The position numbers were made by a program, and so were the translations under genes. The notes below the pieces were generated by a model. The model had not been told where the DNA came from, did not search any database, and worked only from the letters and a program-made list of their open reading frames with translations. A DNA stretch of 64,000 nucleotides, from the NCBI RefSeq assembly GCF_003334405.1, contig NZ_QOWM01000004.1; one strand, given 5' to 3'. Of the stretch, positions 31,765 to 39,014 are shown piece after piece. Position 1 is the first letter of the stretch. Every line of letters begins with the position of its first letter. The stretch is from Escherichia coli (GTDB taxonomy: Bacteria > Pseudomonadota > Gammaproteobacteria > Enterobacterales > Enterobacteriaceae).

Positions 31765-32550
31765 ATGCAGGATCGCAATTTTGATGATATTGCGGAAAAG
31801 TTTTCCCGTAACATTTACGGCACCACCAAAGGGCAGCTTCGACAGGCTATTCTGTGGCAGGATCTCGATCGCGTGCTGGCGGAAATGGGCCCGCAAAAAC
31901 TGCGTGTGCTGGATGCTGGCGGTGGAGAAGGGCAGACCGCAATCAAAATGGCCGAGCGTGGGCATCAGGTCATTTTATGCGATCTTTCTGCGCAGATGAT
32001 CGACCGCGCAAAACAGGCGGCAGAAGCAAAAGGTGTGAGCGACAACATGCAATTTATACATTGCGCCGCTCAGGATGTTGCTTCGCATTTGGAAACGCCC
32101 GTTGATCTGATATTGTTCCATGCGGTGCTCGAGTGGGTGGCTGATCCCCGCAGCGTATTGCAGACCCTGTGGTCAGTGTTGCGTCCAGGCGGCGTGTTGT
32201 CGTTAATGTTCTACAATGCGCATGGTTTGTTGATGCATAACATGGTCGCCGGGAATTTTGATTACGTGCAGGCGGGAATGCCGAAAAAGAAAAAACGGAC
32301 GCTTTCGCCAGATTATCCACGCGACCCGGCGCAGGTTTATCTGTGGCTGGAAGAAGCTGGTTGGCAAATTATGGGTAAGACAGGCGTTCGCGTGTTTCAT
32401 GATTATCTGCGCGAGAAACACCAGCAGCGCGACTGCTATGAAGCATTACTTGAATTAGAAACGCGTTATTGCCGTCAGGAACCGTATATTACCCTGGGGC
32501 GTTATATTCATGTCACCGCGCGCAAACCGCAGAGCAAGGATAAAGTATGA
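31765..32550 (+). CDS. cmoM: SAM-dependent tRNA cmo5U34 methyltransferase CmoM (SmtA)
   Basis: ATG at 31765 gives 261 aa [59 protein letters not shown] (SAM-binding DAGGGEG); stop overlaps the mukF start. Confidence 0.92.
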
Positions 32551-33869
32551 GTGAATTTTCCCAGACAGTCCCCGAACTGGTTGCCTGGGCCAGAAAAAAT
32601 GACTTCTCCATCTCGCTGCCGGTAGACCGACTCTCTTTTCTGCTGGCGGTTGCCACGCTGAACGGCGAGCGTCTGGATGGTGAGATGAGTGAAGGCGAGC
32701 TGGTGGATGCATTCCGCCATGTGAGTGATGCGTTTGAGCAAACCAGCGAAACCATCGGCGTGCGCGCCAATAACGCGATCAACGACATGGTGCGTCAACG
32801 TCTGCTGAACCGCTTTACCAGCGAGCAGGCGGAAGGGAACGCAATTTACCGTCTGACGCCGCTCGGCATCGGCATTACTGACTACTACATCCGTCAGCGC
32901 GAGTTTTCTACGCTGCGTCTTTCTATGCAGTTGTCGATTGTGGCGGGTGAGCTCAAACGCGCAGCAGATGCCGCCGAAGAGGGCGGTGATGAATTTCACT
33001 GGCACCGTAATGTCTATGCGCCACTGAAATATTCGGTAGCAGAAATTTTCGACAGTATCGACCTGACGCAACGTCTGATGGACGAACAGCAGCAGCAGGT
33101 GAAGGACGATATCGCCCAGTTGCTGAACAAAGACTGGCGGGCGGCGATTTCCAGCTGTGAATTGTTGCTTTCGGAAACTTCCGGAACGCTGCGTGAATTG
33201 CAGGATACGCTGGAAGCGGCAGGCGACAAATTGCAGGCTAATCTGTTGCGCATTCAGGATGCGACGATGACCCATGACGATCTGCATTTCGTCGATCGTC
33301 TGGTGTTCGATCTGCAGAGCAAACTCGATCGTATTATCAGTTGGGGCCAGCAATCCATCGACTTGTGGATTGGCTACGACCGCCACGTACACAAATTTAT
33401 TCGTACCGCGATCGATATGGATAAAAACCGCGTCTTTGCTCAGCGGTTACGTCAGTCGGTACAAACCTATTTTGATGAGCCGTGGGCGCTAACTTATGCC
33501 AATGCCGATCGTCTGCTGGATATGCGTGACGAAGAGATGGCACTGCGCGATGAAGAAGTGACTGGGGAACTTCCTGAGGATCTGGAATACGAAGAGTTTA
33601 ACGAGATCCGCGAACAGCTGGCGGCGATCATCGAAGAACAACTTGCCGTGTACAAAACCAGACAAGTGCCGCTGGATCTTGGTCTGGTGGTACGCGAATA
33701 TCTGTCACAGTATCCGCGTGCACGTCACTTTGACGTTGCGCGTATTGTTATTGATCAGGCGGTACGTCTTGGCGTAGCGCAAGCAGATTTCACCGGACTG
33801 CCAGCGAAATGGCAGCCGATTAATGATTACGGAGCCAAGGTACAGGCGCATGTCATCGACAAATATTGA
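32547..33869 (+). CDS. mukF: chromosome partition protein MukF (kleisin)
   Basis: ORF 440 aa, [59 protein letters not shown]... Confidence 0.97.
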
Positions 33870-37500: not shown

Positions 37501-39014
37501 GCGATCTCAACGAAAAACTGCGTGAACGTCTGGAACAGGCGGAAGCGGAGCGTACCCGCGCTCGCGAAGCGTTGCGCGGTCACGCAGCGCAGTTGAGTCA
37601 GTACAACCAGGTGCTGGCTTCGCTGAAAAGTTCTTACGACACCAAAAAAGAGCTACTCAACGATCTGCAACGTGAATTGCAGGATATCGGCGTGCGTGCT
37701 GATAGCGGGGCAGAAGAGCGGGCGCGTATTCGCCGTGACGAGCTGCATGCGCAACTGAGCAATAACCGTTCACGCCGCAATCAACTGGAAAAAGCGCTTA
37801 CCTTCTGCGAAGCGGAGATGGACAACCTGACCCGCAAACTGCGCAAGCTGGAGCGGGATTACTTTGAGATGCGCGAGCAGGTAGTGACCGCCAAAGCGGG
37901 CTGGTGTGCGGTGATGCGCATGGTGAAAGATAACGGCGTTGAGCGCCGCTTACACCGTCGTGAGCTGGCTTATCTCTCCGCTGATGATTTGCGTTCCATG
38001 TCGGATAAGGCGTTAGGTGCGCTGCGTCTGGCGGTGGCGGATAACGAACATCTGCGCGACGTGCTGCGCATGTCGGAAGATCCGAAACGTCCGGAGCGTA
38101 AAATTCAGTTCTTCGTGGCGGTTTATCAGCATCTGCGTGAACGTATTCGTCAGGATATTATTCGTACCGATGATCCGGTGGAAGCTATCGAACAGATGGA
38201 GATTGAACTTAGCCGTCTGACCGAAGAATTAACCTCCCGTGAACAGAAACTGGCGATCAGTTCCCGCAGCGTGGCGAACATCATTCGCAAAACCATTCAG
38301 CGCGAGCAGAACCGTATCCGTATGCTCAACCAGGGGTTGCAGAACGTATCGTTTGGTCAGGTGAACAGCGTGCGTCTCAACGTGAACGTGCGTGAAACGC
38401 ACGCCATGCTACTGGATGTGCTCTCTGAACAGCACGAGCAGCATCAGGATCTGTTTAACAGCAACCGTTTGACCTTCTCGGAAGCGCTGGCGAAACTGTA
38501 TCAACGTCTTAACCCGCAGATTGATATGGGGCAGCGCACGCCGCAGACCATCGGTGAAGAACTGCTGGATTACCGCAACTATCTGGAAATGGAAGTTGAG
38601 GTTAACCGTGGTTCCGATGGCTGGCTGCGCGCAGAGTCTGGTGCATTGTCGACCGGTGAGGCGATTGGTACCGGTATGTCGATTCTGGTGATGGTGGTAC
38701 AAAGCTGGGAAGATGAATCTCGCCGCCTGCGCGGTAAAGATATCTCTCCTTGCCGCCTGCTGTTCCTCGATGAAGCAGCGCGACTGGATGCTCGTTCTAT
38801 CGCCACGCTGTTTGAATTGTGTGAGCGTTTGCAAATGCAACTCATCATCGCAGCGCCGGAAAATATCAGCCCGGAGAAAGGCACCACCTATAAACTGGTG
38901 CGTAAAGTCTTCCAGAATACCGAACACGTTCATGTCGTCGGCCTGCGAGGATTTGCGCCGCAACTCCCTGAAACGCTTCCAGGAACTGACGAAGCGCCTT
39001 CTCAGGCGAGTTAA
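34554..39014 (+). CDS. mukB: chromosome partition protein MukB (SMC-like condensin)
   Basis: ORF 1486 aa, [55 protein letters not shown]...; long coiled-coil; start overlaps the mukE stop (TAATG). Confidence 0.98.

Follow-up and report, generated by a model that had tools for sequence, protein, structure and literature searches.

Why should a gene for a tRNA-modifying enzyme, cmoM, run directly into the genes of the MukBEF condensin, and does their overlap fix the amount of the enzyme relative to the condensin? We examined this question in a 64-kb stretch of Escherichia coli DNA (contig NZ_QOWM01000004.1; hereafter the window, whose positions serve as coordinates throughout), in which the gene junctions were read directly. 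The four genes make up the smtA(cmoM)-mukF-mukE-mukB operon already known from E. coli, and their arrangement is not new. An earlier sequence-only reading regarded the four genes as tightly coupled and CmoM as stoichiometrically tied to condensin. We find that CmoM is not tied in this way. Instead, we assign a probability of about 0.85 to the reading that cmoM is co-transcribed with mukFEB, functionally unrelated to condensin and dispensable for the muk operon, with the genes translated mainly by independent initiation.

The identity of the four genes was observed directly. Several E. coli chromosomes match the 7.7-kb stretch that contains them at 100% identity, and each of the 5,426 complete E. 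coli genomes matches it at no less than 95%. In the RefSeq annotation of one of the 100%-identical strains, the four coding sequences have the same boundaries and names, with elyC divergent upstream and ldtD downstream. All four products (CmoM, MukF, MukE, and MukB) exceed their NCBIfam equivalog cut-offs, and the MukBEF set is complete, with each of its three subunits above the cut-off and the genes in the order F-E-B. Furthermore, MukE matches chain C of PDB entry 3EUH over residues 1-234, and the CmoM sequence matches PDB entries 4HTF and 8JOZ. The CmoM family match (NF008264) is full-length, covering residues 1-261 of 261. The cmoM ATG at 31765 is preceded by GGAGA, whereas a mechanical list of open reading frames (ORFs) starts the gene four codons earlier at a GTG that has no Shine-Dalgarno (SD) sequence. 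Because these identities and boundaries match the annotation, NCBIfam and PDB, the factual part of the sequence-only reading is confirmed. Its statement that this is a known E. coli arrangement agrees with the literature on the smtA-mukFEB operon (PMC4255302, PMC3871593, PMC4738335, PMC7163298, PMC4332155).

CmoM also carries the residues expected of a working enzyme. Four residues have been reported as essential or distinguishing for CmoM (R26, W124, Y150, and R209), and three others belong to the same hydrogen-bond network in the active site (D213, R246, and Y247) (PMC4737166). All seven are present in the CmoM protein of the window, as read from its translation in alignments, and the same catalytic residues are kept in the Vibrio and Aeromonas orthologs encoded upstream of mukF.

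Stop/start overlaps, as expected of translationally coupled gene pairs, are found at all three junctions, where neighboring ORFs share 4, 20, and 1 nucleotides (nt) (Table 1). Direct reading upheld the claims that the cmoM stop overlaps the mukF start in the ATGA at 32547 to 32550 and that mukE begins inside the 3' end of mukF. The TAATG in which the mukE stop meets the mukB start is likewise real, but it had been placed at 34551 to 34556, one base off from its position at 34552 to 34556. The mukB stop ends at 39014. Stop-start overlaps of 4 nt and 1 nt are the commonest geometry within bacterial operons. The annotated reference strain 300709 is collinear with the window except that an IS1 element is absent from the window, and in the annotation of this collinear 64-kb region, 10 of about 40 pairs of same-strand neighbors overlap. 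Five of these 10 overlaps are 4 nt long (msbA/lpxK, ycaR/kdsB, cmoM/mukF, ssuB/ssuC, and ssuD/ssuA). Thus, the overlaps in the muk operon are real but statistically ordinary.

The overlaps raise the possibility of obligatory translational coupling, in which translation of mukF, mukE, and mukB relies mainly on ribosomes that have just finished the preceding ORF, so that the product ratios are fixed. The three overlaps themselves speak for this arrangement. However, coupled pairs of this type should have downstream genes whose ribosome-binding sites are missing or sequestered, and mukF, mukE, and mukB do not have this character. Every start in the operon has an SD-like match to the 3' end of 16S rRNA at usable spacing, with predicted duplex energies of -5.2 to -6.6 kcal/mol. 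In addition, 120-nt windows around each start were searched for structures that could enforce coupling, and none was more stable than shuffled controls (z of +0.2 to -1.2). Because the start regions are not unusually structured, nothing suggests that their ribosome-binding sites are sequestered.

Published synthesis rates also argue against obligatory coupling. The ribosome-profiling data of Li et al. 2014 were taken from Dataset EV6 of Mori et al. 2021 (PMC8144880), in which values are given as molecular weight times copies. Dividing each value by the listed molecular weight yields exact integers of molecules per generation for growth in MOPS glucose: 69 for CmoM, 204 for MukF, 263 for MukE, and 356 for MukB (PMC8144880). 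Proteome mass fractions computed with xTop in the same study correspond to a CmoM:MukF:MukE:MukB molar ratio of about 0.6:1:3.0:3.3 (PMC8144880). For MukB:MukE:MukF, profiling gives a ratio of 1.75:1.29:1 and proteomics one of about 3.3:3:1, and the stoichiometry commonly quoted for this complex is 2:2:1. CmoM, which is not a condensin subunit, is made at 0.2 to 0.6 of the level of the Muk subunits, or at about one-third to one-fifth of the Muk rates when profiling is considered.

Two consequences follow from these rates. First, translation of a downstream gene in a coupled pair should not exceed that of the gene upstream, whereas the published rates climb at each junction. Therefore, reinitiation by upstream ribosomes cannot account for the output. 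Given rates of 69 for CmoM and 204 for MukF, ribosomes that terminate on cmoM can supply at most one-third of the mukF initiations. The remaining mukF initiations must come from independent initiation, or partly from extra transcripts if an undetected internal promoter exists. Second, because the four synthesis rates differ, CmoM is not stoichiometrically tied to condensin. The sequence-only reading had proposed comparing CmoM with the Muk proteins by ribosome profiling, and this comparison, run indirectly through the data of Mori et al. 2021, revealed unequal rates. Its proposed stoichiometric tie is also contradicted by the individual SD sequences, the plasticity of the junctions, and the loss of cmoM elsewhere (see below). 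The overlaps probably do not dictate translation but help it, by unfolding the mRNA locally and allowing some reinitiation.

Table 1. Positions of genes, translation signals, junctions and transcription signals in the window, and of Muk-like clusters found in other loci
Feature	Position	Strand	Basis or remark
elyC (DUF218)	30850..31629	-	RefSeq annotation; divergent neighbor, part of the conserved synteny block elyC<>cmoM-mukFEB
cmoM (formerly smtA), tRNA cmo5U34 methyltransferase, 261 amino acids (aa)	31765..32550	+	NCBIfam NF008264, 504 bits vs cut-off 366; annotation
mukF, condensin kleisin subunit, 440 aa	32547..33869	+	NCBIfam NF003615, 845 bits vs cut-off 407; annotation
mukE, condensin accessory subunit, 234 aa	33850..34554	+	NCBIfam NF003602, 412 bits vs cut-off 250; PDB 3EUH chain C
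mukB, SMC-like ATPase of condensin, 1486 aa	34554..39014	+	NCBIfam NF003422, 2647 bits vs cut-off 699; annotation
Candidate operon promoter, conserved block TGTGACAAAATAGCG..TTT	31709..31727	+	near-invariant in 22 Enterobacteriaceae
cmoM SD, GGAGA	31755..31759	+	anti-SD duplex -6.4 kcal/mol, 5-nt spacing
mukF SD, AAGGA	32536..32540	+	duplex -5.2 kcal/mol
mukE SD	AAGG 9 nt and GGAG 14 nt upstream of start	+	duplex -5.8 kcal/mol, with GGAG
mukB SD tract, GGAGAGGAAG	34540..34549	+	duplex -6.6 kcal/mol
cmoM/mukF junction, ATGA, mukF start over cmoM stop, 4-nt overlap	32547..32550	+	direct read; cmoM TGA 32548..32550, mukF ATG 32547..32549
mukF/mukE junction, out-of-frame 20-nt overlap, ATGTCATCGACAAATATTGA	33850..33869	+	direct read; mukE ATG 33850, mukF TGA 33867..33869
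mukE/mukB junction, TAATG, one base common to mukE stop and mukB start	34552..34556	+	direct read; TAA 34552..34554, ATG 34554..34556
Intrinsic terminator, 9-bp stem (6 G-C), 4-nt loop, then T tract	39019..39049	+	terminator scan
Wadjet/Mks-like four-gene cluster, locus L089	1108..8445		mukF-mukE-mukB + JetD_C-domain gene; cmoM, elyC not nearby
Wadjet/Mks-like four-gene cluster, locus L092	5638..12927		mukF-mukE-mukB + JetD_C-domain gene; cmoM, elyC not nearby

The conservation pattern observed in other bacteria separates the three junctions from one another. A profile scan of species-representative genomes yielded 80 Enterobacterales loci (at least 87% identity), 79 of them with upstream sequence. 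A CmoM ortholog is encoded directly 5' of mukF in all 79, and also in Providencia. The cmoM/mukF junction measures -8 (ATGAGTGA) in 35 species, -4 (ATGA) in 12 and +3 (TAAnnnATG) in 32, where negative values denote overlap. The mukE/mukB junction is similarly distributed over several lengths: -1 in 54 species, -4 in 18, -8 in 6, and 0 in a single species. In contrast, the mukF/mukE junction is -20 in 79 of 79 species, and there is almost no sequence change within this overlap across the Enterobacterales species. CmoM is the fastest-evolving of the four proteins, with a median identity of 79% versus 91-94% for the Muk proteins.

That mukE truly begins within mukF, with an overlap of 20 nt, follows from the conservation of its start at 33850, which the alternative starts lack. 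Three in-frame ATGs could begin mukE, namely 33823 (243 aa), 33850 (234 aa, as currently annotated), and 33877 (225 aa, as used in some crystal constructs). The ATG at 33850 is invariant in 79 of 79 Enterobacterales species, and the MSxxN N-terminus that it encodes is kept in Vibrio, Aeromonas, Tolumonas, and Gilliamella, the last of which then has a 27-codon in-frame insertion. We rejected the start at 33823 since the corresponding codon is ACG in 16 of the 79 species. The older 225-aa start at 33877 (Met10) was also rejected, as Leu or Ile occupies this position in Aeromonas and Tolumonas.

To extend the comparison to more distant lineages, we used MukF representatives at 50% identity and looked up contigs by exact sequence. 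In Vibrio cholerae, elyC lies divergent from cmoM, which is followed after an 11-nt gap by mukF, mukE, and mukB with junctions of -20 and -4. Aeromonas schubertii has a gap of 36 nt between cmoM and mukF, Tolumonas has one of 15 nt, and the three junctions of Providencia measure -4, -20, and -4. The CmoM proteins of V. cholerae, Aeromonas, and Tolumonas are 49-53% identical to that of E. coli. The 20-nt mukF/mukE overlap is also present in Vibrio, Aeromonas, Tolumonas, Gilliamella, and Providencia, and its sequence is near-invariant from E. coli to Vibrio, Aeromonas, and Gilliamella. In V. cholerae, Aeromonas, Tolumonas, and Providencia, cmoM has a divergent DUF218 gene upstream, and in Motilimonas a DUF218 gene lies directly upstream of mukF. 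Separately, the 90%-identity cluster represented by V. cholerae MukF (L082, 5207..7338, where cmoM and mukF are 11 nt apart) also lists 259- to 260-aa CmoM entries. This mixture suggests that cmoM and mukF have somewhere been called as one fused gene, which links the two proteins.

These comparisons bear on obligatory coupling from both sides. Within the sampled Enterobacterales, cmoM and mukF are separated by no more than 3 nt in all 79 species, and the mukF/mukE overlap keeps its length, and nearly its sequence, as far out as Vibrio, Aeromonas, and Gilliamella, which speaks for coupling. However, the cmoM/mukF geometry is variable, with spacers of 11 to 36 nt in Vibrio, Aeromonas, and Tolumonas. 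When this variability is considered together with the SD sequence before every downstream start, the lack of exceptional secondary structure at the starts, and a synthesis rate that climbs from 69 to 204, 263, and 356 (reinitiation cannot exceed the upstream flux), obligatory coupling appears very unlikely. Of the four-gene, tightly coupled unit with a strong terminator described previously, the co-oriented, packed genes and the terminator are supported, but obligatory translational coupling is not.

The linkage between cmoM and mukFEB is not universal. In Motilimonas, neither cmoM nor a remnant of it is found beside mukF; a TIM-elyC arrangement is retained, and only a 257-nt spacer lies between. 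Likewise, neither cmoM nor a remnant was found next to mukF in Pasteurella multocida and Gilliamella apicola, whose upstream genes are unrelated, or adjoining mukF in a lineage with 47% MukF identity (L087). Haemophilus somnus has been reported to lack smtA (PMC2912659). A 248-aa ORF that abuts a distant mukF-like gene (L091) was considered as a possible CmoM and rejected, as it has no similarity. In the most parsimonious history, the Muk-bearing Gammaproteobacteria would have started out with elyC<>cmoM-mukFEB as an ancestral block, and cmoM would later have been lost from it repeatedly. In the same history, the cmoM/mukF overlap would have arisen only within Enterobacterales. The L087 locus (1762..9273) is unusual in another respect. 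It encodes an enlarged MukF (503 aa), MukE (457 aa), and MukB (at least 1599 aa), and the genes are separated by spacers of 56 and 138 nt with no overlaps.

An alternative explanation for the linkage is a selected functional link, in which CmoM activity (mcmo5U34 in tRNA Ala1, Ser1, Pro3, and Thr4) and condensin need to be co-regulated, either because translation of the Muk proteins needs CmoM-modified tRNAs or because both respond to growth phase. The conservation of the linkage in Enterobacterales, Vibrionales, and Aeromonadales is consistent with this proposal, as are the reported rises toward stationary phase of both mcmo5U in tRNA-Pro3 (PMC4737166) and MukB copy number (PMC3871593). SmtA is CmoM, the enzyme that converts cmo5U34 to mcmo5U34 (PMC4737166). 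We used codon usage as a test of whether muk translation depends on CmoM-modified tRNAs. Codons of the four CmoM-dependent families (Ala, Pro, Thr, and Ser UCN) make up 19.4% of the muk genes versus 23.0% of their neighbors. The muk genes (32547..39014) do prefer G-ending codons relative to other genes in the window (GCG, 51% versus 32%; GTG, 50% versus 32%; CCG, 67% versus 49%), but the preference extends to all four-codon families and is just as pronounced for Val and Leu, where the cmo5U tRNAs are not methylated by CmoM. There is no bias specific to CmoM-dependent tRNAs, and we rejected codon usage as support for a link.

Other evidence also stands against a functional link. The mukFEB genes lack an adjacent cmoM in Pasteurella, Gilliamella, and Motilimonas, in addition to the case of H. 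somnus noted above. Furthermore, smtA has been called "an unrelated gene," and overproduction of SmtA gave neither a growth-arrest nor a chromosome phenotype (PMC3871593). We found no support for a CmoM-condensin link in codon usage, the phenotype literature, or evolutionary rates, and such a link is probably absent. It seems to us very unlikely, marginally more so than the other alternatives considered here.

The operon has the characteristics of a single transcription unit, in which the genes are co-oriented and free of gaps, a terminator is located at the end, and neither a promoter nor a strong terminator is detected inside. A promoter upstream can be proposed from conservation. The spacer between elyC and cmoM is 135 bp long, and alignment of 22 Enterobacteriaceae upstream regions reveals three near-invariant blocks (31645..31656, 31675..31688, and 31709..31727). 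The third block, with its extended -10-like element TG-n-CAAAAT at 31711..31719 (plus-strand reading TGACAAAAT), is probably the operon promoter, and its position would suit transcription from about 40 nt upstream of the cmoM ATG. The second block reads TGTGTAATAT on the minus strand, which is also extended -10-like, making it a plausible elyC promoter. A consensus promoter scan called no plus-strand promoter upstream of cmoM or inside the operon (31765..39014), and it left the second and third spacer blocks uncalled as well.

The terminator after mukB is directly observed. Its stem (39019..39040) is followed by TTCTTTTTCC to about 39049, the folding energy is -16.5 kcal/mol, and it is the only strong plus-strand terminator in the region. 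Other plus-strand terminator-like matches inside the operon (32176..32196) are weak, with three G-C pairs and a poor T-run. A crude criterion was applied to 76 loci, drawn from Enterobacterales species and the E. coli reference strain. In 58 of them, a comparable hairpin and T-run occurs no more than 70 nt from the end of mukB, and the stems shown differ in sequence yet still pair. An Rfam scan of 30000..41500 returned nothing above threshold. Its only sub-threshold match, to mmgR/suhB on the terminator hairpin (38989..39054; 22.5 bits versus a gathering threshold of 41, E = 0.49), was judged to be due to chance.

Published work treats the genes in the same manner. The smtA-mukFEB operon has been handled as one long transcript of uniform lifetime that is degraded co-transcriptionally (PMC4332155). 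A single promoter is implied by the manipulation of the "native promoter of the smtA-mukBEF operon" (PMC7163298) and by terminators inserted upstream of mukB to block "the smtA promoter" (PMC4738335). In Dickeya, smtA-mukFEB was recovered as a known operon, and Fig. 3A of that study depicts Nanopore long native RNA reads (PMC9239193). Yamanaka et al. 1995 and 1996 are cited for the operon (in PMC4255302 and PMC9239193), and smtA has been described as encoding a "presumptive methyl transferase, SmtA, of unknown function" (PMC4255302). Our literature search found no paper naming both CmoM and mukF. The CmoM and muk literatures are not joined, yet the arrangement itself is not new.

The promoter-proximal DNA offers a further explanation, in which cmoM serves as a cis-acting leader whose translated ORF and DNA matter for muk expression more than the CmoM protein does. 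It might act through a GATC/SeqA cluster that times transcription to replication, or by protecting the long mRNA against attack by Rho or RNase. GATC sites are dense in cmoM (7 sites, 8.9 per kb) and mukF (12 sites, 9.1 per kb) versus 4.5 per kb in the window. These counts are exactly those published for cmoM and mukF as "stable SeqA targets" (PMC2912659). Also in favor, the operon is repressed by DNA relaxation, or lost supercoiling (PMC545778), and its transcript is degraded co-transcriptionally (PMC4332155). Because of the GATC/SeqA cluster and the relaxation response, a cis-regulatory reading of the promoter-proximal region stays alive as a minority view. As a separate observation, GATC sites are also dense at the dmsA end of the window (1..2500), with 18 sites per 2 kb.

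Several findings make the leader explanation improbable, to about the same degree as obligatory coupling. CmoM keeps all of its catalytic residues and is a proven active enzyme, and therefore its ORF is more than a leader. In lineages without cmoM, mukFEB is expressed from the same position. When Para replaces the native promoter, functional MukBEF is still produced (PMC7163298), although this construct keeps smtA. Direct evidence that SeqA binding alters muk transcription was not found. A broader version is still unlikely but somewhat less so: promoter-proximal retention of cmoM in three gammaproteobacterial orders may be selected, either because the ORF or the GATC-dense, SeqA-bound DNA tunes condensin to replication or through a shared growth-phase signal, and, separately, the 20-nt mukF/mukE overlap may set the MukE:MukF ratio.

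We therefore return to the favored explanation, a known operon in which cmoM is a co-transcribed but unrelated gene. A single promoter in the elyC-cmoM intergenic region, placed there by conservation, would produce a polycistronic mRNA of about 7.3 kb that ends at the hairpin after mukB. Because the ORFs are packed head to tail with overlaps, terminating ribosomes could help to open or re-use the next start. The downstream genes, each with its own SD sequence, would nevertheless be initiated largely independently. The resulting output (CmoM < MukF < MukE < MukB) would approximate the MukB:MukE:MukF needs of condensin and leave CmoM as the least-made product. By sharing the condensin promoter, cmoM would share its growth-, supercoiling-, and SeqA-related control. 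The gene appears to have been co-transcribed with mukFEB since before the split of Enterobacterales, Vibrionales, and Aeromonadales, to be dispensable for the muk operon, and to have been lost from the locus several times.

Some considerations weigh against this explanation. First, the flux argument assumes that there is no promoter inside cmoM, and sub-threshold weak promoters or differential mRNA processing could raise mukFEB relative to cmoM. Second, profiling and proteomic figures are noisy for low-abundance proteins, and CmoM went undetected in several proteomic replicates. Third, the operon promoter was assigned from conservation, and the absence of cmoM from unlinked genomes was read at the muk locus only. 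Finally, the linkage survives in three orders, and among the Enterobacterales sampled its retention is 100%. This persistence exceeds what naive neutral drift would give, leaving room for a selective benefit of co-expression.

The literature has described the operon and its overlaps, with smtA/cmoM as a puzzling member, from 1995-96 onward, and the enzymatic function of CmoM was settled in 2015-16. What is added here is the comparative plasticity of the junctions and the placement of published expression ratios beside the junction anatomy. The useful outcome is negative, in that there is no stoichiometric tie, and the overlap of cmoM with mukF is a lineage-specific detail, within a linkage no longer kept by other bacteria that carry Muk. 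The comparative data narrow the candidates of interest to the 20-nt overlap, invariant between mukF and mukE, and the GATC/SeqA cluster in cmoM and mukF, and not the ATGA junction. The depth of conservation of the 20-nt overlap and the proposed ancestral elyC<>cmoM-mukFEB block are mildly notable by-products.

Three features elsewhere in the window are recorded for completeness. In the ycaC-ycaD spacer (about 3984..3992), strain 300709, otherwise 99.95-100% identical, carries an IS1A insertion that is absent from the window. The genes ycbJ (plus strand) and elyC (minus strand) are convergent, and their 3' ends overlap by 24 nt (30850..30873). The fimbrial usher gene elfC (about 57440..60040) is annotated as a frameshifted pseudogene in the reference strain.

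Comparison with known systems places the locus precisely. It is the same operon as smtA(cmoM)-mukF-mukE-mukB of E. coli K-12 (b0921-b0924), with identical gene order, product lengths (261/440/234/1486 aa), overlaps, and elyC and ldtD neighbors, and nothing material differs. Its ATGA and TAATG junctions are generic operon overlaps with the geometry of msbA/lpxK, ycaR/kdsB, ssuB/ssuC, and ssuD/ssuA in the window. The cmoM/mukF junction does not differ geometrically from these, but its upstream partner is functionally unrelated to the downstream complex.

The mukFEB loci of Pasteurellaceae, Orbaceae, and Motilimonas share the mukF-mukE-mukB order and tight packing of E. coli. At the mukE/mukB junction, P. 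multocida has -1 nt, and both Gilliamella and Motilimonas have +2 nt; Gilliamella has the 20-nt mukF/mukE overlap. These loci differ in having no cmoM upstream and, for Pasteurella and Motilimonas, in having mukF-mukE spacers of 50-69 nt with a separate SD sequence. More distant are the mukF-mukE-mukB-jetD clusters of the Wadjet/MksBEFG type (L089 and L092), which we presume to be plasmid- or DNA-defense systems and not chromosomal condensins. In L092, a gene for a RecD2-like helicase lies about 3.3 kb upstream of the cluster. These clusters resemble mukFEB in the Pfam MukF, MukE, and MukB architecture and in their packed, overlapping genes, but they differ in a MukF identity of 29-35%, a fourth JetD_C gene, and the lack of both cmoM and elyC.

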